Assembly: GCA_043826455.1 (NCBI GenBank)
Contig: JBDRQD010000048.1
Coordinates: 1 to 64,000 of the forward strand
From: Candidatus Bathyarchaeota archaeon
GTDB taxonomy: Archaea > Thermoproteota > Bathyarchaeia > TCS64
DNA length: 64,000 nucleotides
Direction of reading: 5' to 3'
Below are positions 1-21,698 of the stretch, piece after piece; the stretch's first letter is position 1, and each line of letters begins with the position of its first letter. A program made the translations under genes and the position numbers. The notes under the pieces were generated by a model, which was not told the DNA's origin, did not search any database, and saw only the letters and a list, made by a program, of their open reading frames with translations.

Positions 1-486
1 AAAATCATTATCAAATCCAGCTTTTTTCATATTCTTAACAAAATCTTGGAAAGTTATTGTAGACGAAGGTATATCTGTTTCATCTTGTAACTTTATGTTG
101 AAGAAATCCGCAAATTCTTTTATACGTGCTAAACTAGCAGATTCATATTCATCTGCCTCATACCTTTGTATTTGTTGTTCTTTTAATCCAATTTTATTTG
201 CAAACTCTTTTTGGCTCATTCCTTGTGATAAACGTGCTCTAATTAATGCCTTAGGTATGTCATTTATTGATAATAATTTAGGAATTGGAGTTTTGCTATT
301 CCAAATTTTTTCGTACTCGTTTATTTGAATGTCAAATTCCTTGATTTGGTTTTGTATTGCTTCTTCTTCTAACTTCAATAATTCTAAATTTTCATCTTTT
401 CTAACTTTTTGTATTTTTTCAAGATGTTTCTTGAATTCTCTCAACTGTGCTTTATTTATTTTTAACTGTCTTTCATTTGTTATCAT
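1..486 (-). CDS. XRE-family HTH protein (possibly HTH-ImmA/IrrE peptidase type), truncated by window edge
   Basis: Not in ORF track. Manual translation from ATG at 486: MITNERQLKINKAQLREF...ALIRARLSQGMSQKEFANKIGLKEQQIQRYEADEYESASLARI, a classic XRE HTH. ATGA overlap with the upstream gene; open to position 1. Confidence 0.8.
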   Translation of the reverse strand, partial: MITNERQLKINKAQLREFKKHLEKIQKVRKDENLELLKLEEEAIQNQIKEFDIQINEYEKIWNSKTPIPKLLSINDIPKALIRARLSQGMSQKEFANKIGLKEQQIQRYEADEYESASLARIKEFADFFNIKLQDETDIPSSTITFQDFVKNMKKAGFDNDF

Positions 487-941
487 GGAAAATCCTCCAA
501 TTTTAATTTTATAATGCCTTTTCGTTCCATCGTAACTTTATCTGTTTGAAAAAAATCAAGAAAAGGAGTTCTTGTATTCTTCTCAATAAAGTTATTTGGA
601 ATGAATTCTCCTTTTAGGAGAAATTTTTGTATTTTTCTTTTTTTAGGATTAAAAAAATCCGGGAGTTTGGTGTGGTCTACTCCGGTTGTATCCCATAAAC
701 AGTCGTAATCATTAGGATACCTTTTTGATGTTACAAAACTTCCATCTATGTAAACTAATTTACAACCTGCCTTTTTTAAAAAATCTAATGAGATTCGAAG
801 GCCTTCTAATAGCCCTTCTCTATGCTCATTGTCGCCGTATCTTTCTCTAATTTCATCCCATGTTGCGTCATGAATTCCTTCTGTCAAGTTCCCACTCCCA
901 TTGAATTTAGGAATCATAACACAACAATTTTGTTGTGTCAC
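483..941 (-). CDS. Minimal nucleotidyltransferase-fold protein (DUF6932-like)
   Basis: IDGSFVTSKRYPNDYD matches the GS..DxD motif of the Pol-beta NTase superfamily; C-terminal KGIIKL; directly upstream of the HTH gene. Confidence 0.7.
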   Translation of the reverse strand: MTQQNCCVMIPKFNGSGNLTEGIHDATWDEIRERYGDNEHREGLLEGLRISLDFLKKAGCKLVYIDGSFVTSKRYPNDYDCLWDTTGVDHTKLPDFFNPKKRKIQKFLLKGEFIPNNFIEKNTRTPFLDFFQTDKVTMERKGIIKLKLEDFP

Positions 942-1001
942 TTAGTATTTATTTGTTGTGGTAAAACTAAAATATTTAGGGTAGGGTTCCAATAAACTAC
1001 T

Positions 1002-1475
1002 ATGGAACATGTCGCTATTATGCGCAAATCATTGGGATTTTTAGAAAAAATTTCGGAAGGATCAAAAAAGATAGAATCTCGATGGTATATAACAAAATAT
1101 GCTCCGTGGGGGAAAATTAGAGAAGGGGATGTTATTTATTTTAAAAATTCTGGAGAACCTATTACGATAAAGTCTAATGTCAAACGCGTTGAATTTTATT
1201 CCGACCTTAAACCAGACAAAGCTGAAGAGCTTTTACTAAAATATGGTCCAGAAGATGGAATTGGTATTGAAAATATTGGGGATTTTTATCAATCAGTAAA
1301 AGATAAAAAATATTGTATTCTTGTTTTTCTTTCAAACGTAGAAAATGTTGAACCATTTGAAATAGATAAATCAGGTTTTGGTGCTATGAGTTCCTGGATA
1401 TCTGTGAAAGATGTGAATTCGATCAAAAAGGGGTCAGATACTTTAATTAAACAAACGCAGATTCTTGAATATTAA
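1002..1475 (+). CDS. ASCH (PUA-like) domain protein
   Basis: GSKKIESR (GxKxxExR) followed by GDVIYF, the ASCH signature. Confidence 0.75.
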   Translation: MEHVAIMRKSLGFLEKISEGSKKIESRWYITKYAPWGKIREGDVIYFKNSGEPITIKSNVKRVEFYSDLKPDKAEELLLKYGPEDGIGIENIGDFYQSVKDKKYCILVFLSNVENVEPFEIDKSGFGAMSSWISVKDVNSIKKGSDTLIKQTQILEY

Positions 1476-2458
1476 TTTATTTTGACTTTATGTATCTCTA
1501 TTTTTCTTTCATTGTGAGTATATTTTTCTTCAAGTATTTGATTCCATACTTTTAGGGCTTCATGCTGATTTTCTAACGAACGTTTGTACTCTGTTGTTAT
1601 TCTTTTTGCTACTGGACTATATGCAACGATCTTCAAAGGAACAACTCGTAGGGGCATTTTATCATGTATTTCTGATAGTTTCATCACAAATTTATCCATC
1701 TTATTTCTTAGTGAATGATTGTTAGGAGAAGTGAAAGTAACATACCCATATATGTCTAAACCTTCTAAACGTAATTTGTTGAAGATTTCGAATTGTTTAT
1801 GGTATTTTTTCCCTAAGGTCTGAGTATTGAACGTGAAAGAACTTTCATCGAATCCCTTGAAGCATCCTACTTTGCCATAACTATCATATGATGCGATTTT
1901 ATCTCGTTGTTCTGAAGTTAAATATTTAAAATAATAATCTGTGCTGAGATTGTCATCCGACCAAAGGTAAGTTGTTTTATCTAGTTTGTTACTTTCCAAA
2001 GCTTCCATTGCCCAGACTATCCACTCTGGAACTAAATCTGGTTGGCCTCCTGAAAGAACGATGACTTGCGGTTTATTTTTTTCTTGTAAATATGCACTGA
2101 TCAACTCGCTTGGTGAGAAGAACTTTGATTTTTCCATGGTACCTGATCTTAATTCGTTATCAACAAAGCAATACCAGCAATTCCAATTACATCCTGCTAA
2201 TTGGAATACTTGAGCTAGGGTAATTTCTTCTGTTTTTTTATTTAGAGCTTCACTTGCTGGTAGATTAGGTAAAGGATCAAATACCCAGTCTTTATGTTCG
2301 TACATTCTATAGTGCCGTATTCTACCAAATCCATTGCAATTTACTGGTTTTGTAAGATCGTTCTCCTGCAATGAGTTATCTAATTTAGATATCAAAATTT
2401 TTTTTTCTAAAACGTTAATTAATTTGTTTCTCATTTCTTTATCAAAATCTTTATTCAT
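1472..2458 (-). CDS. Radical SAM enzyme, function unknown
   Basis: CNWNCWYC (CxxxCxxC) and LSGGQP (GGEP-like) motifs; ATGA-coupled to the upstream kinase. Confidence 0.85.
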   Translation of the reverse strand: MNKDFDKEMRNKLINVLEKKILISKLDNSLQENDLTKPVNCNGFGRIRHYRMYEHKDWVFDPLPNLPASEALNKKTEEITLAQVFQLAGCNWNCWYCFVDNELRSGTMEKSKFFSPSELISAYLQEKNKPQVIVLSGGQPDLVPEWIVWAMEALESNKLDKTTYLWSDDNLSTDYYFKYLTSEQRDKIASYDSYGKVGCFKGFDESSFTFNTQTLGKKYHKQFEIFNKLRLEGLDIYGYVTFTSPNNHSLRNKMDKFVMKLSEIHDKMPLRVVPLKIVAYSPVAKRITTEYKRSLENQHEALKVWNQILEEKYTHNERKIEIHKVKIN

Positions 2459-3051
2459 TTTTGAAACTCCTTTTTTCTTGTTTCTAAAATAATGTGATCT
2501 AAATAATCATGTTCTACAAGTTTAGATTCTACTTTTAAAATCATTTCATCTATCGTATTAGATCCATCAAGCACAAAATCTGACTTTTCTTTTAATTCAT
2601 TGATTTCTCTTTCAACAAGATGGTTTATAATATTTTTATTAAACTCTGAATATGATATTTTTTGATGATATTTATTAATATATCTTCTGAAAAGTATTTT
2701 TTTATCTACGTCAATAAAGAATATAATATTTTTATCATAATACTTTTCAACTTCTGATAATATACTTAAATGTCTAATACTATCATAAACATGAGTTCGG
2801 GTTTTAGGTTTATTAAATTTGATTACTTTTAGAAGAAATGTACGTGGGTCAGTATTTAAAAATACTTCGTATCCAATTCTCTGAAGATTCTCTCTGTTGC
2901 GAGATTGATTTTGAGCATCGGCAATATTTTTTATATATTTACTGAATGAAATCTCGTCCCACGGATATTTATTAATAAAATGATTACTAAGAGTAGTTTT
3001 ACCTGAACAAATATTTCCTAAGAAAACAACTGCGCCATTCATTAATATCAC
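2455..3051 (-). CDS. P-loop nucleotide/dNMP-kinase-like protein (copy 1)
   Basis: Walker A GNICSGKTT, plus RENLQRIG and YDSIRH motifs typical of dNMP/dephospho-CoA-type kinases. Confidence 0.75.
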   Translation of the reverse strand: MILMNGAVVFLGNICSGKTTLSNHFINKYPWDEISFSKYIKNIADAQNQSRNRENLQRIGYEVFLNTDPRTFLLKVIKFNKPKTRTHVYDSIRHLSILSEVEKYYDKNIIFFIDVDKKILFRRYINKYHQKISYSEFNKNIINHLVEREINELKEKSDFVLDGSNTIDEMILKVESKLVEHDYLDHIILETRKKEFQK

Positions 3052-3222
3052 TGAGAGTTAATAGTAAACAAACTAATATTTTCTTGCCTTAAAATACACG
3101 CTCGCTCGATTTCTTTATTCAATTTCATTTAAAAAAAAATTTTGGGTTTACCGATATTTTTTGAAATGAATATTCATTCACAAACCACATATTTTAAATT
3201 AAAACTTACTGCTGTATGATGT

Positions 3223-4959
3223 ATGAACTCTCAAAATGAATTAGAGTTAATTCATGGCGATACACATATTACTAAATTTAGTCAAGACTGGTTTGGTTTT
3301 TCTTCTCATGCAAAAAAATTAGTAAACGAAATCAGTGTCATCGCTATAGATTCCTGCATTTGTTGCGGAGTTATTGGAGAGTGGGGAACTGGTAAATCAA
3401 GTTTTATGAAATTAATGTCAAATTATATTCATGATGACTTTGATTCGAATAATTTAGTAATATGGTATATCGCTTGGGATCCATACGGACTATCGAATAT
3501 GGGAGATGCAATCTTATTCCATATTTTTAAAACTGTAGCTAACTATTCGGACCAAAATCCATCTGAATATTCCGAAACAATTAAAAAAGAATTTATAAAA
3601 TTTCAAGAAGCCTTAGGAATCCGAAAAGGACTTAGAAGTTCAGTGCAAAAAATTTTTAAAACGTTGTCTGCATCAGAGACCGCTCCTGGTTTACTTAAAG
3701 ATGTAGCTACAATTGGAGAAAAAACTATATCAGAAATGCAAAGCGCAACTGTTATTAGAAGTACTTTAGAAACGTTGAACGAGTATCTAAATAATAAGAA
3801 TATTTTTTTATATCTATTTATTGATGAACTTGATAGATCTACTGGAGACCAAATATTTAGTATCTTTTCAGAATTGAAGGCCTATTTATCTCATAACAGA
3901 ATAGCGATCATTCTTGGGTATTCAGAGTCATATGTTATTGAAGCAATTAAAAATGAGCTTCCTGAAGAAATTGATGCAAATCAATTTATTGATAAGATAA
4001 TTACTCTCAGAAAAAATATTCCTTTACCCGATCTAACAAGTCTAAAGAATATTGCATATAAATACTTACAAAAATACCCCATTATATCTGATTATCTTGA
4101 TGAATTATCAGAATACGCTGCTAATTTATGTGATTGGAATCCTAGACGTTTAAAAAGGATCCTTCTGTCCTTTATCCAACATTTGCCAGCTAAAGATATT
4201 GGGGAAAATAATTTTATTTGTTTATTAATAATGACAGCATTAGACGAATCAGGATTATTAAAATATCGAGAATTTAATTCAGCAATTATTAATAACGACA
4301 TTGATGTATTACTATCAAATCTTAAAAGTCTTTCAGATTCGAAGTTAGAAGATGAAGCAAAATGTATTTGTGAAGCTATAGAAAAGCTTAATTTAACATC
4401 CCGATTTTCCACTGTTTCTGTACAGAATCTCGGATTGCCTATTTTTAAATCAACAATAATAAAGAAAATGGTTACTGAATATGATCAATCGAAAAAATAT
4501 AATTGGAAACCTCAGATTTTTAAAATATTTTCAGTCCTGAAAAAACAAGGATTAGTAATATCCTCAGATTTTTTTGTTGGAGATGATGAACTTTGTATAA
4601 AGAATGCAGAAAACACTGAAATTAAAAAAGACATTATTAGGCAAATATCAATCTTTAGAAGTGATATTACGTACTATACAACTTCAGATTATGATTTATA
4701 TATATTATTCACTGAACAAATTACCAGAATCGTAGCAGAAATTTATTCGTTTATAAGTAAAATACCATACATTGTAAAAAAGATGCCAGTAATTTTGTGG
4801 ATAATTGATGATGGAGATTGCATTAAACAGATTGATATTGAAGATATCAGACAAACATTAAATGATATAAATAAAGGACTTAAAAATCCTGTTAAAATAA
4901 TATATACAAATTATGATCAAATTGATTCATTGATTGATTATCTTTTCACACATTTTTAA
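3223..4959 (+). CDS. KAP-family P-loop NTPase with uncharacterised C-terminal domain
   Basis: GEWGTGKSS, FIDELDR and NPRRLKR motifs; FIDKII segment. Confidence 0.85.
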   Translation: MNSQNELELIHGDTHITKFSQDWFGFSSHAKKLVNEISVIAIDSCICCGVIGEWGTGKSSFMKLMSNYIHDDFDSNNLVIWYIAWDPYGLSNMGDAILFHIFKTVANYSDQNPSEYSETIKKEFIKFQEALGIRKGLRSSVQKIFKTLSASETAPGLLKDVATIGEKTISEMQSATVIRSTLETLNEYLNNKNIFLYLFIDELDRSTGDQIFSIFSELKAYLSHNRIAIILGYSESYVIEAIKNELPEEIDANQFIDKIITLRKNIPLPDLTSLKNIAYKYLQKYPIISDYLDELSEYAANLCDWNPRRLKRILLSFIQHLPAKDIGENNFICLLIMTALDESGLLKYREFNSAIINNDIDVLLSNLKSLSDSKLEDEAKCICEAIEKLNLTSRFSTVSVQNLGLPIFKSTIIKKMVTEYDQSKKYNWKPQIFKIFSVLKKQGLVISSDFFVGDDELCIKNAENTEIKKDIIRQISIFRSDITYYTTSDYDLYILFTEQITRIVAEIYSFISKIPYIVKKMPVILWIIDDGDCIKQIDIEDIRQTLNDINKGLKNPVKIIYTNYDQIDSLIDYLFTHF

Positions 4960-5023
4960 ATTTATTTTGATTATTTTATATGTTATAGATTAATAGTATA
5001 AGTCATAGGTTTTTTTTAAATGA

Positions 5024-6259
5024 TCAAGAAAGCATATCATTAAGATATGACAATGCTTCATCTATATGTTGTTGAGTATTTTTCATTAATTTTAAGGGTA
5101 TATTTTTTTTAGAAAGAATCAATAATGCATGTAAAAAGGACGATTTTCCCTCAATTTTATAAACTCTATTATCTGAAATCCATAAATCAACAACAGACCT
5201 TTTATCATATTTTCTACTAACAGATGATAATACGTCGTTTTTCTCAATACGAATTAATTTAGGCCTCACATTATAATCATCAAATGGTCCTTTTATCATA
5301 ATCTTATGTTTTTTATGGTAAAAATCATGCCATTCATTTTTTTCGTTGTTTTTAACTATAGAATTCATGATTTGATTTATCTTTTCATTTTTTACTTGTT
5401 TATATTTTATCATTTTTACTAAATCAGCAGTTCTCCAATCTTTTATAAGATTTATTCCAGCACTTTTTAATGATGATTTTTCAAAATCTGGTGTTTTATA
5501 ATTTATAACATTTTTTTCAATGGATTCTAATGAAAAACCTAGTAATTGAGATACTTCAATTATTCTATTTCGCTCTGAATATGCTTCTGGTCTTGTATTC
5601 AACGAATATAATGTGGATTCAAGAGTTGAACCTATATTAGTTACCAATGAAGCTTGACATAAAAATGCAATATAATGTTCAAGATACCAAGGTGCGTCAA
5701 AAAAAACTTTTTCAATTTTTCTTGTAGAATTCCATTTATCTTGAAGTAGATTTTTTCTGTAAACTGATACATTAGATGATGTAACATTTTTTTTGAAAAA
5801 ATCTATTACTGAACGATTATTGTCAATCAAGATAACATTTGGGGTTGGTTCGTAAAGTAACAATTCAGCTAGTATTGACGGCGCTCCAAGTAATAATATT
5901 ACGTCTGTTTCAGAAATGTCCGCTAAAATATTTTTTGATATTGAAGATATTGTAGATTCTGTAAATCTCCAATCAAAATCATACAGATGTGGTTTAGGTA
6001 AAATTAATTTCTTATGATTAATGCTTCGGATATAATTCGTATTCTTTTTCTTTTCTATAAGTGTATATTTACTGTTACTTAACCTAATTATTTTTCCATC
6101 ATTTTCTAATTTATGTAATATTTGTTTTAAATCCAAAGGATATAATCCATAACATTTTTTGAAAATGGCTTCGAACGATGCACATTTTTTTGAAAGAAAT
6201 TTAATTATTGTTTTTTCAATTAAATCGTATTGAGAATAATTTATTTTATCATTAATCAA
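5024..6259 (-). CDS. Class I SAM-dependent methyltransferase-like protein (amino-MTase DPPW-like motif) with possible N-terminal wHTH
   Basis: LLLGAPS (motif I-like), VILID, FFDAPWY (DPPY/W-like motif IV); ATGA-coupled to the upstream kinase. Confidence 0.6.
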   Translation of the reverse strand: MINDKINYSQYDLIEKTIIKFLSKKCASFEAIFKKCYGLYPLDLKQILHKLENDGKIIRLSNSKYTLIEKKKNTNYIRSINHKKLILPKPHLYDFDWRFTESTISSISKNILADISETDVILLLGAPSILAELLLYEPTPNVILIDNNRSVIDFFKKNVTSSNVSVYRKNLLQDKWNSTRKIEKVFFDAPWYLEHYIAFLCQASLVTNIGSTLESTLYSLNTRPEAYSERNRIIEVSQLLGFSLESIEKNVINYKTPDFEKSSLKSAGINLIKDWRTADLVKMIKYKQVKNEKINQIMNSIVKNNEKNEWHDFYHKKHKIMIKGPFDDYNVRPKLIRIEKNDVLSSVSRKYDKRSVVDLWISDNRVYKIEGKSSFLHALLILSKKNIPLKLMKNTQQHIDEALSYLNDMLS

Positions 6260-6798
6260 AGATATTTCTCCTTTTTTAAAATTAGTTTAACTTTATTAAT
6301 AATTTCTTTAATTTGCAGAGTTTCATCTATTTGATGATCAGAATATGCTAATAAGCGAAGAATATCTTTTTCTACAGGATGGTTATTTATTTCTTTAAAT
6401 TGATCGAATGTTTTACCGTCGTTATATTTTTTAACATATCGTTCATATCTCTTACATTCAGACAAATTAAGATAAAATGAAGTTGTTTTTGAATAATAAT
6501 TTTTAACTTCAAATAACAAATCTGGATGTCTTATACTATCATAAATGTGAACATCAGAACTTGGATTATGGTAATCAATAACATTTTTTAAAAAAACATA
6601 GCATGAATATTTATTATAAAGATCATAACCAATATCTTGTAAGGATTTTCTACTCTTGGAAGATTTATTTTTATCCGCAATATGACTGATGTAATCACCA
6701 AAAGAGATTCTATCCCACCCATACTCATTACACAAATGCTTGGCAAGAGTTGTTTTACCGGCACAAATAAGTCCGTTGAATACAATTGCCTTTATCAA
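6256..6798 (-). CDS. P-loop nucleotide/dNMP-kinase-like protein (copy 2)
   Basis: GLICAGKTT, RKSLQDIG, YDSIRH; clear paralog of 2455-3051. Confidence 0.75.
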   Translation of the reverse strand: MIKAIVFNGLICAGKTTLAKHLCNEYGWDRISFGDYISHIADKNKSSKSRKSLQDIGYDLYNKYSCYVFLKNVIDYHNPSSDVHIYDSIRHPDLLFEVKNYYSKTTSFYLNLSECKRYERYVKKYNDGKTFDQFKEINNHPVEKDILRLLAYSDHQIDETLQIKEIINKVKLILKKEKYL

Positions 6799-7072
6799 TT
6801 ATTATCTCTTATTCTTATACACTATTTTTTTTTTAAATCTTTGTTTTTTTACTATGGGGAGTGTTCTAAAAACCTTAAACAATACTTGACGCATTTAACG
6901 GAAACGCACGATAAACGGTTGAAAAGGCTAAGCTAGCGGACATCCCCTAAGCAAATTATCGACCATACCCATAACAGCAGGTAAAATATATTGGGGAGAG
7001 GTGGAACGAAGAAGCCGTGTTATCCATCCCAATTCCTGACCCGTTATATCTACCTTAAACCTCGTTTTAATC

Positions 7073-7153
7073 ATGAAGTTTTTTATATCAGTTGATATGG
7101 GAAGCATTAGCGGCATAGTGGACACTGCCATAATTAGCCACATAAAACCCTAG
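7073..7153 (+). pseudogene. 5' relic of dppA-like M55 peptidase
   Basis: Translates MKFFISVDMGSISGIVDTAIISHIKP* versus intact 20874 MKVFISVDMEGISGIVDTTMTSRKEP. Confidence 0.75.
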
Positions 7154-7357
7154 CCACCCCTTAAAGCTGTTATAAGCCCACACGACAACCAAATATCGAC
7201 CCACATGAGAAACCCATACAAAAAGATGGGGAAAAGAAGAGTCATCAAAGCCGCCTCACGCCCCACCAGACCAAGCGGATCAACACCCCACCAAATCCAC
7301 AAAGCCATGCAGCAAGCCACCAAAACCTCCCAACAGACACCCCCACGCACCATTTAA
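7151..7357 (+). pseudogene. Degenerate copy of the promoter and 5' end of the selA-like gene at 18462
   Basis: Aligns with ~18407-18601. ATG 7205 gives MRNPYKKMGKRRVIKAASRPTRPSGS...KAMQQA, stop at 7357. Confidence 0.85.
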
Positions 7358-7497
7358 GGCAAAACGAAACAATAATAAAAGGCGCCAAAGAAAGTTTTAC
7401 ACGCTATAGTTCTGTGTTCAAAAAAAACTACAACTAGATCCAGCGCAAACGCTCCAAACATCTCGACAACTTCTACACAAACTATAGAGGTGAAAAA

Positions 7498-9693
7498 ATG
7501 AGTAAAAGGAAAAAAGAAGAAAAAACCATAACAATACACATCGACCTAACGGAAAAACCTGAAAGATGGCCCAAAATCGCGGCGTATCTAACGACACGAA
7601 CAGGTAGACTGTTAACCAGACAGGAGTTCAGACCAGACAAGGAAGGCAGAACCGGCGAAGCCAAGCTCAGCGTCGAAGAAGACCAGAAAACCTATATACT
7701 GAAGATAGGGCCCGACATCGACGACCCCAACCGCCTAGAAAGGTACCGGCCCTACGTAAAAACCCTCGAAAAGGCAGAGGAAGCCACCATAGAGATACCC
7801 AAGGAGATCTGGATCTGCTGGCTGAAAACCCCCTACCTGGTGACGGGCACAGTCAAGAAAGTATTACCCGGCAAACAAGCACCCATCTGCGTCGGAGAGG
7901 TCGAGATCTTCGACGTAGACATGAGACACTGCATCCTGAGACTGCCTGACCTCGTAATCGAGAGGATACGTGACGGCATCATAGACATCATCGTAGACCC
8001 GCCGCCGATAGACCCACGCATCATATGGAGGGATAAGGATCTCACTTGGTGGGGGCCCGATGACGACGACTGGTGCGGCACGGGGCCCAAGCCACCCTTC
8101 CCACCCAAAGCCGTAGACGTCCAGAAAAGGCTCCAGGCACTGCCCAAGGAGTGGAGCTTCGCCGTCGAACGCCATCAACGTCTAACCGACGCGAAGACCA
8201 GGGCCAACATGAAACTCCAGACCATGCCCCTGCATGAGAGAAACACCTTCCTCACCTCGATGGCGGTGGAGGGGGTAACCACCTCACAGGTACTCTACTC
8301 CAACACCAAACAGTTCCGCGATCTACTGATCAACAAACTGTTCTACTTCAAGTACTGGATATGCTGGTGGCCATGGATCTTCTGGTTATGGTGGCCCTAC
8401 TGCGGATACAGCCTTGAGTCTCTAGGCAAGGCCACACTCAACCCCGACGGCAGCTTCACTAAAACTGTCTGGCTCTCGGTCTGCAGACACGACAAACCTG
8501 ATCTCTGGTTCACGGTCAAGCAGACCATCGACGGCGTCGAGAGGGTGATCTACGCGAGGTACCCGGTCCCATGCAACACCTACTGGAACCACCCAAGCGG
8601 AGACCCCGTGGACTTGTTGGTGTCGCATCCCTTGGCGGAGACCTGCGTCGAATACATACCGGGTACCCCCGACCCCTACGTGATGCCCATGGGCGTCTAT
8701 GAGGACGAGTGGTACCAAGTACAGGACGCCCACATCAAGGCCCACTGCGACCCATCGACCCCACTTCCCCCAGCCTGCGGCCTCTACGGTGGGACAGACC
8801 CCTATGGGACGAGGCTCGACCTCCGGATGCAGTTCCACGACGCCATGTACGGCCACTACTACAGGTGGAGCATTAGACGCCACGGCGAGACCAGTTGGAC
8901 CCCATTGAATACACCCATAACCCATAGACACGTCGCTTGGAGCTCCGGGAAATGGGTGATCGTGGCTGACAACCTTGGACCCATGAACGTGGGCTCTGAG
9001 ACGGGCCTCTACAAGGTCCCCGACCCAAGCAAGGCCTGGCTTTCAAACAGAGACGACCTAGCCTACGCCGTATGGTACACGGCGGTCTGGGACGGCAGCC
9101 AGTACCTGAAACAGGTGAGTGACGGCAAGTACGATTTGCAGCTGGAGATATTCAACGCCAGCGGGAACAAGGTGACGCCGTCGGCGGCAGGGTTCAAGTA
9201 CATACTGCCGACCGCTGTCTTGGGCGATGTAGACGATGCCTTGTACGTGGAAGCGGGCGGAGAACTCATCATGCACTTACATGTTGATAATAGGGACACG
9301 GTGGCCGAGATATCGTCCGTGTCTTTGAATGGTGTAGCAGCTGGTGAGTGCCAGTTCCTGGAGTATAAGCATAAGGACACGGACACCGTGGAGATCGAGT
9401 ACGTTGCCTACCACCCTGCGACTCCGGAGAACTTCCTCAGCCACTACGTTTTATCGGTTACGCGTGGTATCTCTGGTACCTTGGTTCAATCCATTACGAG
9501 CAGTACTCCTGAGAGGACCCCGACACAGGCCGTCTACACCGTCGACGACCTGCTGGGGTCTTACGACCAGTGTGCCTTCAGCGTGTGGCTGCACACTTAT
9601 CCGCGGACACGTGATGGCCATAGCAGGATCAGGGAGTACGAGGACTCTGATAGGTCCTCCTTCGCGTTAACGAAAAACAAGGGCCCACCATAG
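7498..9693 (+). CDS. Large hypothetical protein (731 aa), Trp/Cys/Pro-rich, beta-rich C-terminus
   Basis: Long ORF, GAGGTGA SD just upstream, T-rich tract after the stop; no motif recognised. Confidence 0.8.
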   Translation: MSKRKKEEKTITIHIDLTEKPERWPKIAAYLTTRTGRLLTRQEFRPDKEGRTGEAKLSVEEDQKTYILKIGPDIDDPNRLERYRPYVKTLEKAEEATIEIPKEIWICWLKTPYLVTGTVKKVLPGKQAPICVGEVEIFDVDMRHCILRLPDLVIERIRDGIIDIIVDPPPIDPRIIWRDKDLTWWGPDDDDWCGTGPKPPFPPKAVDVQKRLQALPKEWSFAVERHQRLTDAKTRANMKLQTMPLHERNTFLTSMAVEGVTTSQVLYSNTKQFRDLLINKLFYFKYWICWWPWIFWLWWPYCGYSLESLGKATLNPDGSFTKTVWLSVCRHDKPDLWFTVKQTIDGVERVIYARYPVPCNTYWNHPSGDPVDLLVSHPLAETCVEYIPGTPDPYVMPMGVYEDEWYQVQDAHIKAHCDPSTPLPPACGLYGGTDPYGTRLDLRMQFHDAMYGHYYRWSIRRHGETSWTPLNTPITHRHVAWSSGKWVIVADNLGPMNVGSETGLYKVPDPSKAWLSNRDDLAYAVWYTAVWDGSQYLKQVSDGKYDLQLEIFNASGNKVTPSAAGFKYILPTAVLGDVDDALYVEAGGELIMHLHVDNRDTVAEISSVSLNGVAAGECQFLEYKHKDTDTVEIEYVAYHPATPENFLSHYVLSVTRGISGTLVQSITSSTPERTPTQAVYTVDDLLGSYDQCAFSVWLHTYPRTRDGHSRIREYEDSDRSSFALTKNKGPP

Positions 9694-12098: not shown

Positions 12099-12869
12099 TT
12101 ATTCTACTGTCAGCCTTACTTTCCTGCTGTCCAAGAACTGGTTCTCGTTAACGGCGTATAACGTTATTTCTGGTTCTCCAGGTTCTTTGGAAGTGTAAAA
12201 GACTATACCATCCTCGATGTATAATTCGCCGCGATCCACGAAGAATTTGTACCACAATCGCCTGTCAAGTGGGTCTCTTGCATCAACTCGGAGGCTTACC
12301 CGTTGAGCGATCTTGATCTTCAACGACTTCGGTGTGAACACCTCGATCTTGGGAAGGACCCCCACTTCAGCCACTTCCGGCCTCGACGTGAACAGGTCAT
12401 CTATGTAATTGGCGAATTTTATCACAGATACCTCCTGGGCTCCCACGCTGGTTGTCCGTATTATCATGTTCCCACGTGTGAACAGAAGGGATCCAACAGC
12501 TTCGCTGTGGCCCACGAAGGCGAGGTCACCAACGGTGATATCTCTCTCAGACGCCTCGGTTAACACGGGTGCTTGATAGCTCTCCAGCAGCCTCAACAGC
12601 GATGATTGGGCCTTGTGCCAGGACCCGGCCTCGATGACGTCAACCCGGACCAGTTCTTCCTCTTCGCTGAGGGCATTCTCCCAGACGTATGACCGGAATT
12701 CTGCGTCTTCCGCCAGTGGTACTGGTATCTGTTTTACTAGTTTCCAATCCGGGAACTCGTTCCCGGCGAGGAAGTAGCCATGGATCAACATCTGCTTGCT
12801 GAACTCCGCTTTTCCTAGGATGTCTTTCATCCAGACAGTGAGCCTAGACGCGCTTTTGTCCCCCATCAT
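12099..12869 (-). CDS. Hypothetical protein with probable C-terminal Ig-like domain
   Basis: 256-aa ORF, ATGA-coupled to the 12866-14074 gene; C-terminal DARDPL...ITLYAVN pattern. Confidence 0.7.
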   Translation of the reverse strand: MMGDKSASRLTVWMKDILGKAEFSKQMLIHGYFLAGNEFPDWKLVKQIPVPLAEDAEFRSYVWENALSEEEELVRVDVIEAGSWHKAQSSLLRLLESYQAPVLTEASERDITVGDLAFVGHSEAVGSLLFTRGNMIIRTTSVGAQEVSVIKFANYIDDLFTSRPEVAEVGVLPKIEVFTPKSLKIKIAQRVSLRVDARDPLDRRLWYKFFVDRGELYIEDGIVFYTSKEPGEPEITLYAVNENQFLDSRKVRLTVE

Positions 12870-14074
12870 ATCACCACCCTCCTCTGCTTCGTCGATGGAG
12901 CGGGGTCACACTTTGGGCAGCCGTTTGGATCGTTCGTGGTCAACCTTCTGCGGTAGTTCAACGGCCCTGTGCAATCGCCAAACTTCATGTTCACCGGTAA
13001 CAACGCCGTGTGGGGGGCCCCGTTGTAGGGATCGCTGTCCCCGTCAACCTTCAAGCATGCGTCGAATACCTCGTCGTCGACGCCGCAGGCCCCCTTCCAC
13101 GCCACCTCGTGGTAGCTGAACCCCCCTCCGAATGGCGCCTCCCAGTGGTTGAACCCGATGCTGATCAACTCGTTGAGGGCGAAGCTCCACTGCATACGTG
13201 ACTGCCAGAGGTCGCATCCAAGTATGTTTGAGAAGGTGGAGGTGATGGTGGCGCAATCCGTGCAGTTGACCTTCTCGCCTAAGCCGGGTCCCCCCTTGAT
13301 CCTGTCGAGGAACTCGGTGCACTTGAAGTCCCCCACGGAATAGAACGTCGCCCCCCAAGATGTATCGTATTTTATCCTTGAGGGACCGAGGTTGTTCACG
13401 TTCTCGGTCACCTTAGAAGCTGCGCTGTCTCTATCCTTTGCGGTCATGGCCCATGTGCAGGCGTAGTACATTACCTCGGTCCAAGGAAGCTGATCGTTCG
13501 AAGAGGAGTAGGGCTGCTGCTGCCATGGATCGTTCGGTTCCTCGAGCAACACGTATATCTGGTGCGTCGTTGTATCAAAGTCCTTCCACGAGCCTCCTGG
13601 AGGCCGGTACTGCCACCTCCACTTCGTGACCCTGACACCGACCCCATAGTTACCGATTCTAGTGTTCTTCAGTTCAAACGATACAAAACCTGAGTCTCCG
13701 CTAGCAAAGTTCACCGAACGTTCCTTGACGTCTCCTAACACGTTCCCGAAGAAGGCCTTGTATACGGCGATAATGAATGCTATTAGCCAGCCTATGCATC
13801 CCTTGGGCTCAGAGGGCACTGTGATGGCGTCAATGGCTCTAATCTCGGCAGTTTCGATATCGCTTGCAAGGAATCTAGCTTGAATCGTCACGGTGTTCCC
13901 CTGGGTCTCTTTTATAACGTAGGCTGCCTCAGAGTCCGTTGGCAGATGGCAGATCCCCCTCTGCCACTCGGGGACATCGATGAACTCCGTCTTATTTTTA
14001 CGTATGTTTAACGCGTCGGATGTATGAGACGTTGGATCGTGGTTGAATTTAATAGCTAGAATTTCAACGCTCAT
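12866..14074 (-). CDS. Hypothetical protein with putative transglutaminase/papain-like Cys-His-Asp core
   Basis: VNCTDCA...FSYHEVAW...VFDAC in the order and local spacing expected for that fold. Confidence 0.55.
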   Translation of the reverse strand: MSVEILAIKFNHDPTSHTSDALNIRKNKTEFIDVPEWQRGICHLPTDSEAAYVIKETQGNTVTIQARFLASDIETAEIRAIDAITVPSEPKGCIGWLIAFIIAVYKAFFGNVLGDVKERSVNFASGDSGFVSFELKNTRIGNYGVGVRVTKWRWQYRPPGGSWKDFDTTTHQIYVLLEEPNDPWQQQPYSSSNDQLPWTEVMYYACTWAMTAKDRDSAASKVTENVNNLGPSRIKYDTSWGATFYSVGDFKCTEFLDRIKGGPGLGEKVNCTDCATITSTFSNILGCDLWQSRMQWSFALNELISIGFNHWEAPFGGGFSYHEVAWKGACGVDDEVFDACLKVDGDSDPYNGAPHTALLPVNMKFGDCTGPLNYRRRLTTNDPNGCPKCDPAPSTKQRRVVI

Positions 14075-17992: not shown

Positions 17993-18461
17993 GAGTCCCA
18001 CCGATTATATATCCAAATTCGGTATTTTGCAGGAGCTTTCAATGAAATTTCAAATTTACTTGCGAACATTAGTTAATTAAACTTGTTTAGTTTAACATCT
18101 TTAACATGTATGACGTTTCCAAGAATACCAACTTTGCACTATGTGCACACGTACGATGCATATTACACAAAGAACCATCCGATCCATAGTTTTTCGTCAC
18201 TTTATCTGGTCTAGGTGGACCCGCCCTTGATTTAGCCTAGGAGTTGGGTTCAGACTCTACCGCCGAGGGGTATCTCCCCAAACTTTAATTTTTTTTAAAA
18301 AAGTACGCTAGGTACGTGGCATGATCTTGGGAGGGGTGTGCCCGTAGTGGTATCTGCACAATCATTGACACGTTCATGACTACCGAACACAGTTGGACTG
18401 CAAGAATAGTCACGCCTTGAAGCTGTTATAAGCCTCCGCGACAACCACATATCGATCCCAC

Positions 18462-19702: not shown

Positions 19703-20314
19703 TCAAGGAGCGCGCAACCCATAGATCACCATACCTGAGCCAACGTCCCGGATGAGAATGCTGGAAGGATAACGAAGAAGCACAAAGATCATCACCAGGT
19801 CCCCAGCCGACCCCGCAGCGTTCATGGCCACAAACAACACGTCAAGAAGCAACAACGAGGGAGGCAGGAAGAAGACAAGCAAGACCCCGACCAGGGTCAG
19901 AGAGATGAGGGGAGCCGCCCCCACCCACAGATACCTGTCACGCTGAAAATAGACATCTGGCGGCGCGGAAACGTAGACGAACACCCCTTTCAGCCCCACC
20001 GTGGGCGCCACACCCGACACACGCCAGAAGACGACCCCATGAACGAGCTCATGGAAAACCAACACCAAAACCAACACGGCGAAGCCGCTCAACAAGGACC
20101 CCAAGTCAAAGCTAACTATGATTCCACCCTCTTGATAATCCGCTATACCCAGGTCAAGGACGCCTGGACGCACAACATCCACGTACCAGGCCATGGCGAC
20201 GGCCACGGCGACGATCAGAATCAACCCGAGCAGAACCGCTGAAAACTTCATTCTCTGCTCACTGGTCAAGTCAATGACAGCCTTTTCGACGTACCCTTCT
20301 GGAGGAGACCCCAT
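19703..20314 (-). CDS. DUF3267-like membrane zinc metalloprotease
   Basis: HELVHG, AAPL and NAAGSAGD motifs; several TM segments. Confidence 0.75.
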   Translation of the reverse strand: MGSPPEGYVEKAVIDLTSEQRMKFSAVLLGLILIVAVAVAMAWYVDVVRPGVLDLGIADYQEGGIIVSFDLGSLLSGFAVLVLVLVFHELVHGVVFWRVSGVAPTVGLKGVFVYVSAPPDVYFQRDRYLWVGAAPLISLTLVGVLLVFFLPPSLLLLDVLFVAMNAAGSAGDLVMIFVLLRYPSSILIRDVGSGMVIYGLRAP

Positions 20315-20410
20315 TAAACCAGATCAACTCAAAGTGAAACATATTTCTTGTGGACACCGCCCGCGGCTCCACAACGCTTATTTCTAGAGAATCAAAAAAT
20401 AAACACAGAC

Positions 20411-20599
20411 ATGAAAACCAGGGTAGTCGTGGCGCTCCTCGCCATAACTCTGCTCCTAGCCGCAGCATACCCCGCCCTAGCCCAACTGAACACGGACGAG
20501 CAGAGCGAAGCCCTGCCCACCCCCATGAGCGACCCCTACCAGGAAGACTACATACCGTGCACCAACGCCAGATACAGGGCCTGGTTCGGCGCCTCATGA
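20411..20599 (+). CDS. Small secreted protein (62 aa)
   Basis: MKTRVVVALLAITLLLAAAYPALA-Q, a signal-peptide-like N-terminus. Confidence 0.5.
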   Translation: MKTRVVVALLAITLLLAAAYPALAQLNTDEQSEALPTPMSDPYQEDYIPCTNARYRAWFGAS

Positions 20600-20873
20600 A
20601 GAATGATAACCACCGGACGGGACCCGACACGAAGGAATACTACTATTTAATCGAGCCCCGAGTAGAATCCTTCACATACCTCTGAGAAAGCTGCCTGCCC
20701 TACATGCTCCCATCCCAAGTCCATGGGCATCATAGCCTCGGACAGGTCTTACGCAAGAATCAACACAGATTCAAAGTATATATTCATTGTGAATCGTAGG
20801 TGCCGAGGCAATGATCCCCACCCAACGACACCAAAACGTTAACCACTCGGCCAACAAATAAAGATCGATCAAG

Positions 20874-21698
20874 ATGAAAGTATTCATCAGCGTGGACATG
20901 GAGGGCATCAGCGGCATCGTAGACACCACCATGACCAGCCGCAAAGAACCCGACTACGAGAAAGGCCGATCCCTGATGGCTAAGGACGTCAACGCCTGCA
21001 TCGAAGGCATCCTACAAGCCGGCCCAGCAGAAATCACCGTCTGCGACGCCCACGGAGGCATGAACAACATAAACCCCGAGGACCTCCACCGGGACGCCGT
21101 CCTCGTCAGAGGCAGCCCCAAACCCCACAGCCAGATGAGCGGCATAGACGCAACCTACGACGCCTGCATCTTCATAGGCTACCACAGCAAGAAGGGCACC
21201 CTGGGCGGCATCCTCAGCCACACCTACAGCGGAGCCAGCGTCGAGTCGCTCCACATCAACGGCTCCGAGTCCGGGGAGACAGCCATGAACGCAGGCATCG
21301 CGGGCCACCACGGGGTCCCCCTCATAATGGTAGCAGGAGACCAGCAGGTGGCAGCCGAAGCAAAGAGCCTCAACCCCGACATCGAGGCAGCGGTAGTCAA
21401 GACCGCCGTGGGCCGCAGAGCCGCCCACTGCCTCCACCCCGAGAAGGCCCGGCAGCTCATCAAGGAGACCGCGGCCAAAGCCATCAAGAAGCACCGACGA
21501 GTCAAACCCGTGACATACACCACCCCCGTCACCTACACCATCAGATTCACCGACGCAACAAGAGCAGACGCAGCCGCCTACATCCCAGGAGCCAGACGCC
21601 TCGACGGCAAAACCATAGAGCTCACCGCCGACGACTACCTCACGGCCTACCACGGGTTCCTCGCGGCCGTCCTATGCGCCCAAGCCGTAAGCCAGTGA
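20874..21698 (+). CDS. dppA: M55 D-aminopeptidase
   Basis: ISVDMEG, CDAHG, IGYH, SHT and GET motifs. Confidence 0.92.
   Translation: MKVFISVDMEGISGIVDTTMTSRKEPDYEKGRSLMAKDVNACIEGILQAGPAEITVCDAHGGMNNINPEDLHRDAVLVRGSPKPHSQMSGIDATYDACIFIGYHSKKGTLGGILSHTYSGASVESLHINGSESGETAMNAGIAGHHGVPLIMVAGDQQVAAEAKSLNPDIEAAVVKTAVGRRAAHCLHPEKARQLIKETAAKAIKKHRRVKPVTYTTPVTYTIRFTDATRADAAAYIPGARRLDGKTIELTADDYLTAYHGFLAAVLCAQAVSQ

Follow-up and report, generated by a model that had tools for sequence, protein, structure and literature searches.

We find that an AT-rich island at the left end of a 64,000-nucleotide stretch of a Candidatus Bathyarchaeota archaeon (the window; GenBank assembly GCA_043826455.1, contig JBDRQD010000048.1, positions 1 to 64,000) is a rearranged copy of a conserved seven-gene operon. 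In its conserved order the operon comprises a first gene (encoding either a DUF6932 nucleotidyltransferase or a DUF4160 protein), a gene encoding a helix-turn-helix (HTH)/IrrE-type peptidase, and genes for DUF4186, a radical S-adenosylmethionine (SAM) enzyme, a transferase with a DPPWY motif, an ASCH protein and a nucleoside monophosphate (NMP) kinase. Our preferred reading, to which we give a probability of roughly 0.45, is that the operon introduces a modified base of its own and that the modified nucleotide, once released, is either read and cleared or sets off a toxin, perhaps in defense against viruses. An initial annotation, made from the letters of the window, had taken the island for a candidate nucleotide-modification defense system of two kinase-enzyme modules on either side of a KAP NTPase, plus ASCH. 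It is supported in part: its theme stands, its architecture does not.

Co-inheritance of seven genes and the archaeal island

The genome loci are the best 80 of 259 matches to an alignment of 40 of the 2165 radical SAM relatives, and the metagenome loci are the best 80 of 343 matches to an alignment of 122 transferase sequences, 34 of them with enough flank and 46 on short contigs; the metagenome profiles were trained on the genome-locus set, and some loci are near duplicates. The seven genes are co-inherited as one unit, with all of them in one order and direction in 50 of the 80 genome loci. Around the radical SAM gene we find ASCH (75/80), the kinase (75/80), DUF4186 (74/80), the HTH-peptidase (73/80) and the transferase (65/80). 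The 34 flanked, transferase-centered loci contain radical SAM, HTH-peptidase and DUF4186 genes in 33 cases each, ASCH and kinase genes in 32 each, the nucleotidyltransferase in 25, DUF4160 in 5 and a dCTP-deaminase-like gene in 13. As first gene, the nucleotidyltransferase (51 genome and 29 metagenome loci) and DUF4160 (19 and 7) never occur together (0/80 genome loci, 0 metagenome loci). Radical SAM, ASCH and kinase form the least dispensable trio, present in 58 of 59 well-flanked loci. A peptidase-centered search of 72,556 plasmids, an independent query, returned 7 of them, which are also the 7 that the radical SAM search had matched. Fusions join radical SAM to transferase, transferase to ASCH, ASCH to kinase, ASCH to DUF4186 and peptidase to kinase, and 15 phylum-level groups of hosts are labeled in the kinase tree. 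Of the genes expected by the initial annotation to travel together, radical SAM, transferase, ASCH and kinase do co-occur across many phyla, but KAP does so in none of the 160 loci, and the unit drawn there is incomplete: missing from it are the toxin-like gene, its HTH-peptidase regulator, DUF4186 and the operator. Beside the operon, a protein of ~400 residues (weak kinase-profile match) and a partner of ~290 residues, without a Pfam family, form its flank at L008:3698-4912, L045:3446-5421 and L061:11155-13244; a class I methyltransferase and a gene of ~380-440 codons recur at L056:9538-11375, L062:3072-5113 and L068.

The AT-rich character noted earlier is borne out (GC is 0.280 over 1002-6798 and 0.584 over 6851-64000), and the island holds the lowest-GC 6-kilobase bin among 870 bins of a genome with 58% GC. 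All six open reading frames (ORFs) that had been listed are present, but the extent of 1002-6798 was too narrow: positions 1-938, with the nucleotidyltransferase, the HTH gene and the operator, belong to the island. We infer that it extends past the contig start onto the end of a second contig of the assembly, C40 (~19900-21480; GC 0.326 versus 0.544); the two contigs end without overlap. The strand of the C40 fragments fits the window island, and comparison with two homologues places ~12-15 codons in the gap; with the C40 end counted in, the host carries all seven operon genes. This host is an archaeon, since an archaeal PolD DP2 gene lies on the island's contig (58601-62026). A Logan contig of a possible source run, which is not an independent sample, spans window positions 4997-9000 and crosses the right border; the transition from AT-rich to GC-rich DNA is thus no peculiarity of this assembly. 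As to integration scars, neither island border has a tRNA, and the two share no repeat above 10 bases. A sigma-70 scan of 900-1060 gave 1 site versus 1.0 expected, and two RNA runs of the same study, with matches of 18-21 bases only, are uninformative on expression.

In the window the gene order is shuffled (Table 1): the toxin-like, regulator and DUF4186 genes run leftwards, ASCH is divergent, as in L002 and L048, and the radical SAM and transferase genes each stand behind a kinase. We propose that the archaeal copy is rearranged and lately acquired, with a duplicated kinase and an inserted, unrelated KAP gene. The KAP NTPase had been correctly identified, with Walker A and B motifs and a Pfam score far above its cut-off, and it is a passenger outside the conserved operon: it is found in 0/80 genome and 0/80 metagenome loci, and the stretches fetched around two relatives among 150 class genomes contain no operon genes. 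We therefore rejected KAP as a core part. Neighbors of the nearest KAP relative (L170:3351-15619, genome G121) include DUF365 and a GmrSD-type gene that is broken up into two ORFs. The likeness to PifA is the KAP domain (profile 4e-24 over residues 10-277), but the match covers the NTPase domain only (5-264 of 720); QatA reaches 34.5 bits versus 600, and no partners of either match.

Large ORFs beside the island, at 7498-9693 (731 residues) and 12866-14074 (402 residues) in the window, both without a Pfam family, and at L081:9370-10602 on C40 (410 residues, adjoining the island), are apparently bacterial-looking cargo in a variable region. At the far left border on C40, a short ORF (L081:11614-12009) resembles a HicB-type antitoxin by eye; of the 70 bases that surround it, contig C68 holds a 78% copy. 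A 49-base repeat, 86% identical, occupies two intergenic regions of the window (7151-7199 and 18407-18455).

Table 1. Features of the island, of the adjoining contig end and of the short transferase relatives (window coordinates unless a contig or locus is named).
Feature	Position	Strand	Basis
AT-rich foreign island, window part	1-6850		GC 0.282 versus 0.584
HTH/IrrE-type (M78) peptidase regulator, N-terminal 162 of ~485 residues	1-486	-	HTH_3, 43.8 bits
DUF6932 minimal nucleotidyltransferase, putative toxin	483-917	-	DUF6932, 112 bits
Palindromic operator ACACAAC-N6-GTTGTGT	919-938		exact match, before the nucleotidyltransferase start
ASCH (PUA-fold) protein	1002-1475	+	family profile, 2.5e-35
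Radical SAM enzyme, well conserved uncharacterized family	1472-2458	-	2165 relatives
NMP-kinase-fold protein, copy 1	2455-3051	-	AAA_17, 25.9 bits
KAP-family NTPase, Walker A and B	3223-4959	+	KAP_NTPase, 81 bits (cut-off 20)
Putative SAM-dependent amino-group transferase	5024-6259	-	1775 representatives, fold and motifs
NMP-kinase-fold protein, copy 2	6256-6798	-	AAA_18, 30.6 bits (cut-off 29.4)
Peptidase half of the HTH regulator	C40:20539-21480	-	profile match and ORF
DUF4186	C40:19959-20525	-	profile match and ORF
Short DPPWY transferase with PUA-like/calcineurin protein (cassettes)	L178:6680-9048, L179:742-3110, L180:4474-6881, L181:4420-6875		candidate type III Metis

A toxin-like gene, its regulator and a conserved operator

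The first two genes have the layout of type II toxin-antitoxin modules, in which the gene of a small enzyme is coupled to that of an HTH protein and a palindromic operator stands in front. The nucleotidyltransferase motif GS-x-DxD is present in 43 of 44 sequences. Translation of the window copy would begin at the conserved ATG at 917 (the ORF finder had chosen a GTG at 941; M9 is nearly invariant), and an ATGA overlap joins it to the HTH gene. The HTH fragment in the window, a helical extension followed by an XRE HTH and cut by the contig end, is 51.5% identical to residues 1-163 of the protein from L003. Its C40 half scores 24.9 bits with Peptidase_M78 (cut-off 22), and HExxH is kept in 64/64 peptidases. 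IrrE-type peptidase regulators respond to DNA damage. The full-length HTH-peptidase fusion was found only with this operon; the regulators of CapH-CapP, ImmR-ImmA and RosmerA type likewise combine an HTH with an HExxH peptidase, but the operon gives only partial profile matches to them. The nucleotidyltransferase matches PDC-M63A of the PADLOC candidate PDC-M63 (7e-11), and there is no match to PDC-M63B.

The operator is conserved in sequence and position. In the window it lies between the nucleotidyltransferase and the divergent ASCH gene, with a half-site at ~952-960; it is the sole site within 1 mismatch in the genome and is identical to the Thorarchaeota copy. With at most 2 mismatches allowed, 72 of the 73 nucleotidyltransferase loci have a site no further than 120 bases from the start (41 exact; three loci without an anchor and duplicates were left out), compared with 2 sites over the other 1.0 Mb of these loci. 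An operator-like site at 2 mismatches is expected in 11 of 100 shuffles of the window alone, so the weight of the operator comes from its position and conservation. The HTH protein presumably binds it. A complex prediction of the nucleotidyltransferase with HTH residues 1-140 (score 0.01) is no evidence either way. The same palindrome occurs in 0/19 DUF4160 loci, several of which show another one: TTAACAT-N2-ATGTTAA-like sites lie upstream of DUF4160 in the Bacteroidota-type loci L019, L029, L043, L050, L059, L070 and L079. A third palindrome, ACGTATACGT-like, is seen in L002, L032 and L041.

Enzymes of the operon and short relatives of the transferase

The transferase model (pLDDT 94.4) consists of an N-terminal helical/winged-helix part, a class I Rossmann core with the motif D-A/P-P-W-Y and an extra C-terminal domain without an assigned fold, for which the Atlas gave nothing usable (blank over residues 290-411). 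PF10237, a family that we take to include a protein lysine methyltransferase, is its sole Pfam match (18.7 bits, gathering cut-off 23.2); relatives score 28.1, 23.5 and 20.7 bits, and one has no match. BpsA, a branched-chain polyamine synthase, is the closest solved fold of the core (Z 21.8-22.2, r.m.s.d. 2.9-3.0 over 220-223 aligned residues; Foldseek E 3e-12), followed by PH1948 and METTL5 (Z 16.5-16.8). Structures of ZCCHC4 and EEF1AKMT1 are not among the fold matches listed, which does not speak against kinship with them. Asp-188, Pro-190 and Tyr-192, in the place of the DPPY-type motif that follows strand 4 in amino (N6A/N4C-type) methyltransferases, are invariant and DPPWY occurs in 113 of 122 sequences (DAPWY in the window protein), while the GDDD motif, reported as indispensable in BpsA (PMC12979288), occurs in 0/122 and is replaced by G-x-P-S/T. 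Because of these two counts the protein is, judged by its motifs, an amine-directed transferase and not BpsA, from which it also differs by its C-terminal domain and by its presence in mesophiles on mobile DNA.

In the radical SAM enzyme Cys-90, Cys-94, Cys-97 and Cys-199 are invariant among 40 sequences; the CxxxCxxC motif agrees with the initial identification, and the Pfam match of the window protein is below cut-off. Its model (pLDDT 94.3) is nearest to the pyruvate formate-lyase (PFL)-activating enzyme (Z 16.8, r.m.s.d. 3.1 over 226 aligned residues), with QueE (Z 13.6), spore photoproduct lyase (Z 12.2) and viperin (Z 11.6, ninth) further down. PDB sequence searches with the transferase and the radical SAM enzyme gave weak matches only.

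The kinase family profile is nearest to adenylate-kinase-like structures (3lw7 and 3h0k, 3e-11); its designation as a dNMP kinase was a guess at the substrate. The two window copies are paralogs, as described initially with three shared motifs: they are 41.6% identical over 178 residues and keep all kinase motifs. They are sisters in a quick tree of 68 rows (SH-aLRT 98; both flagged for unusual composition), with the Anaerolineales (L002) and Thorarchaeota (L003) proteins as nearest kin, and by their sequences the pair is a local duplication. Two dedicated kinase modules were rejected; in other loci a single kinase gene follows ASCH as the last of the operon. A second kinase-profile match exists in 7/80 loci, mostly in longer or fused proteins, most of them outside the length filter of the tree. 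The ATGA coupling of each kinase to the next gene holds for kinase 1 and radical SAM (2455-2458) but not for kinase 2 and the transferase, where the overlap reads TTGA and includes a TTG start (6256-6259); the ATGA beside that junction is out of frame.

The window ASCH protein scores 15.6 bits with Pfam ASCH (gathering cut-off 21.2; the L031 relative 22.7), matches the structures of PH0355, PF0455 and CXorf40A weakly, and is without the N-terminal extension of ~35 residues seen in most relatives. It keeps G-K-x-x-E-x-R (Gly-20, Lys-22, Glu-25, Arg-27), of which Lys-22, Glu-25 and Arg-27 are invariant in 31 sequences. The octapeptide described for the family is G-K-x-x-E/T-x-R with a Lys/Glu dyad, and a Lys-Glu-Arg motif is reported to be catalytic in ASCH proteins that strip cytidine and tRNA of N4-acetyl groups (10.64898/2026.02.27.708502); ASCH domains are described as fused or linked to adenine methyltransferases (PMC4738411). 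As had been noted, the ASCH gene converges on the radical SAM gene, their stop codons overlapping at 1472-1475. DUF4186 carries conserved Cys/His motifs and is elsewhere fused to RecD2-like helicases and to DUF5131. An optional dCTP-deaminase-like gene (5/80 genome and 17/80 metagenome loci) is placed between the DUF4186 and radical SAM genes at L057:7201-7974 and 21 similar sites. In its product the RSS-x-GR and LE of solved dCTP deaminases, residues that are catalytic there, are replaced by RNK and IR, and 21 of 22 proteins end in a hydrophobic segment; the protein may be an inactive sensor on a membrane anchor, possibly a nucleotide-gated membrane effector.

The strongest functional clue comes from short relatives of the transferase. 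A search returned six (four on plasmids, two on viral contigs), of which four were opened. These keep the family motifs without the N-terminal part, are 22-28% identical to the window transferase and, in 4/4 cases, directly precede and overlap the start of a gene for a PUA-like/calcineurin-type protein of 477-497 residues. In the two partner proteins that were scanned, Pua-like (PF24405) and calcineurin domains are present; the remaining two partners align with these over the full length at 34-49% identity. A PDB sequence search with the PUA-calcineurin protein gave no match. MisA, of PUA-calcineurin architecture, is described as sensing m6dAMP from degraded host DNA, and the preprint on the Metis system predicts methylase-MisA pairs as type III (10.1101/2025.11.05.686725; a second preprint, 10.64898/2026.01.15.699771, has the same theme). 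The four short relatives, but not the window gene, have a layout that would fit MisD-MisA. At 22-28% identity, the extension of their function to the window transferase can only be suggested by analogy. The cassette at L181 adjoins an ATPase-UvrD pair, and that at L178 a primase-like gene; one two-gene pair of this kind is known from Loktanella salsilacus.

Mobility, proposed mechanism and alternatives

The cassette is mobile and patchy, because the radical SAM gene was not found in 40 relatives or in 400 genomes of the phylum and 6 of 7 operon plasmids are conjugative. Integrases and relaxases lie near operon loci. In Tolypothrix the operon genes are part of a strain-specific plasmid insertion of 18,401 bases, described without interpretation (PMC9679502), by which PCC 7712 and PCC 7601 differ. 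We found no match in 50,697 GenBank phages; IMG/VR holds one contig with radical SAM, a split transferase and ASCH near an integrase, plus one 28% radical SAM relative. The latter (L084:6667-12934) sits among genes that by eye resemble an MT-A70 methylase, a sugar isomerase, a sugar kinase and glycosyltransferases, possibly a DNA hypermodification cluster.

The defense neighborhood was assessed in 77 loci on 277 of the 280 non-core ORFs picked as nearest (PADLOC threshold 1e-20), which include two kinase genes and perhaps some spurious ORFs, with 39 ORFs of this one archaeal window as control. Once six matches are excluded (ABC-type mad3, short DrmD-profile and TniQ/TnsC, two of each), defense-like neighbors number 36/277 versus 0/39 in the control (Fisher p = 0.013). 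The 36 matches are spread over 25 loci and include restriction-modification, Thoeris, a CBASS cyclase, Argonaute (three loci, which are kin), Druantia, RosmerA and others.

The operon is real and conserved and has apparently not been described as a system. As the initial annotation expected, no PADLOC system matches (PADLOC and NCBIfam give partial or far-below-cut-off matches), and the literature searched holds no description of it; Iyer et al. (2013, NAR 41:7635) and the Metis supplement may list the neighborhood or the transferase, and the accessible text of 10.64898/2026.10.19.760177 and PMC10853773 concerns other systems. Like Metis, the operon unites in one locus a domain of PUA fold, a likely modifier, a toxic output and a protein that may clear basal mononucleotide. 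In the operon, however, ASCH is separate from the effector, and radical SAM, kinase, DUF4186 and the peptidase-repressor with its operator are added; the main text of the Metis preprint mentions no ASCH, radical SAM or kinase (10.1101/2025.11.05.686725). A HAD phosphatase (MisB) or three-helix membrane effector (MisC), for which no dedicated profile was run, was not seen among the conserved clusters or window ORFs; the optional deaminase-like protein has a single helix. The (PIN)-GNAT-EVE operons described by Bell et al. (2020, PMC7641849) resemble ours in that ASCH adjoins a P-loop protein of AAA_17 type and that a nucleic-acid modifier and a toxin-like domain are present, but our modifier is a SAM-dependent pair rather than a GNAT, no EVE or PIN occurs among the conserved families, and a GNAT-EVE fusion is absent from these and from the window ORFs.

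Gene content, co-inheritance, operator, intact motifs and mobility are matters of observation, on which we build the following model of a mobile, self-regulated write-read-kill cassette based on a modified nucleotide. An unusual base would be put into host DNA or RNA by the transferase, the radical SAM enzyme or both, with the cysteine-rich domain DUF4186 as a possible guide. In a healthy cell the kinase would recycle, and ASCH bind or hydrolyze, leaked modified mononucleotide. Once nucleic acid is broken up, by a virus or through damage, the modified nucleotide or else single-stranded DNA would build up, the IrrE-type peptidase would then inactivate its own HTH part and free the operator, and the product of the first gene (the nucleotidyltransferase or the DUF4160 nuclease-like protein), in some loci together with the membrane-anchored dCTP-deaminase-like protein, would arrest the cell. 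A bolder form of this model is somewhat unlikely: an undescribed immune class in which radical SAM and the BpsA-fold transferase, possibly by aminoalkyl transfer, write a base modification new to biology and the freed nucleotide is a private alarm that switches interchangeable toxins through a self-cleaving repressor, spread over many bacterial phyla and brought into archaea with its operator unchanged.

Several observations weigh against the write-read-kill model. The transferase cannot be the sole writer, because it is missing from 15/80 loci; it was also not found in 8/8 genomes of transferase-less loci searched (positive controls 2/2). The toxin-regulator pair is missing in 6/59 well-flanked loci, and the nucleotidyltransferase with a short HTH partner also occurs alone. 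A profile of the four PUA-calcineurin proteins found no such effector, neither among the ORFs of the 160 loci nor in the host genome. The solved enzyme nearest in fold to the radical SAM protein, the PFL-activating enzyme, has a protein and not a nucleotide as its substrate. No defense-like match is seen among the nearest ORFs of 52/77 loci, and the predicted defense-island enrichment, present with the exclusions, vanishes without them (42/277 versus 4/39, all mad3; Fisher p = 0.63). PDC-M63AB gave no defense in one reported E. coli test (10.1101/2024.12.20.629700). Substrates, toxicity, product, the sensing that leads from ASCH or kinase to the toxin, and the defense role itself are parts of the model that we infer.

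An alternative is viperin-like chemistry, in which viral polymerases are poisoned by a free nucleotide analogue that radical SAM, kinase and an optional transferase produce, with ASCH as detoxifier and the toxin-antitoxin pair there only to regulate and stabilize the cassette. We consider this unlikely. The radical SAM-ASCH-kinase trio, as the least dispensable one, would fit it, the pVip (E 5e-5) and VakA (2e-5) profiles match weakly, and prokaryotic viperins too combine a radical SAM enzyme with an NMP kinase near toxin-antitoxin genes, reported to be of HicA/RelE type (PMC12926258). But the operon enzyme belongs to a different family (19.9 bits with viperin model NF038283, cut-off 180), its fold lies closer to the PFL-activating enzyme and QueE than to viperin, five further genes are conserved, and the transferase relatives pair with a sensor-effector, not with biosynthetic genes.

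It also appears improbable that the operon is a damage-inducible repair or salvage unit for altered nucleotides or RNA, kept on mobile elements by its toxin-antitoxin pair and without an antiviral role. The DNA-damage response of IrrE-type regulators, the spore photoproduct lyase among the fold matches, the RecD2-like helicase fusions of DUF4186, the weak defense enrichment and the deacetylation reported for ASCH proteins with this motif (10.64898/2026.02.27.708502) speak for it. The swappable first gene, the optional membrane-anchored deaminase-like gene, the patchy spread and the Metis-like context of the transferase family, however, fit conflict systems better. Modification of a protein or polyamine, with radical SAM as an activating enzyme and the transferase acting like BpsA or a lysine methyltransferase, is quite unlikely: the best folds, each several Z units above the next, and PF10237 as sole Pfam match with its presumed lysine methyltransferase member would agree with it, but GDDD is absent from all 122 transferase sequences, RNA m6A enzymes such as METTL5 come next in fold similarity, and the partners are ASCH and a nucleotide kinase. 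The layout first proposed, two kinase-enzyme modules and the KAP NTPase as one system, is hardly credible, for although both kinases keep their motifs and overlap the next gene by four bases, KAP is found in 0/160 loci, the kinases are sisters and the kinase follows ASCH elsewhere.

New here are the operator, the component fusions, a BpsA-fold transferase without GDDD and its short relatives before PUA-calcineurin proteins. The whole operon exists in cultured, harmless hosts such as Tolypothrix PCC 7712, Pedobacter, Spirosoma and Kribbella, and together with the difference between Tolypothrix PCC 7712 and PCC 7601 this makes our proposal directly testable. The operon frames two large enzyme families without known reaction (2165 radical SAM clusters and 1775 transferase representatives), and it places DUF4186 and DUF6932 in a genomic setting. 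Should the write-read-kill model hold, the operon would be a self-contained form of the modified-nucleotide danger signal predicted for Metis, with different chemistry and likely a new nucleic-acid modification.

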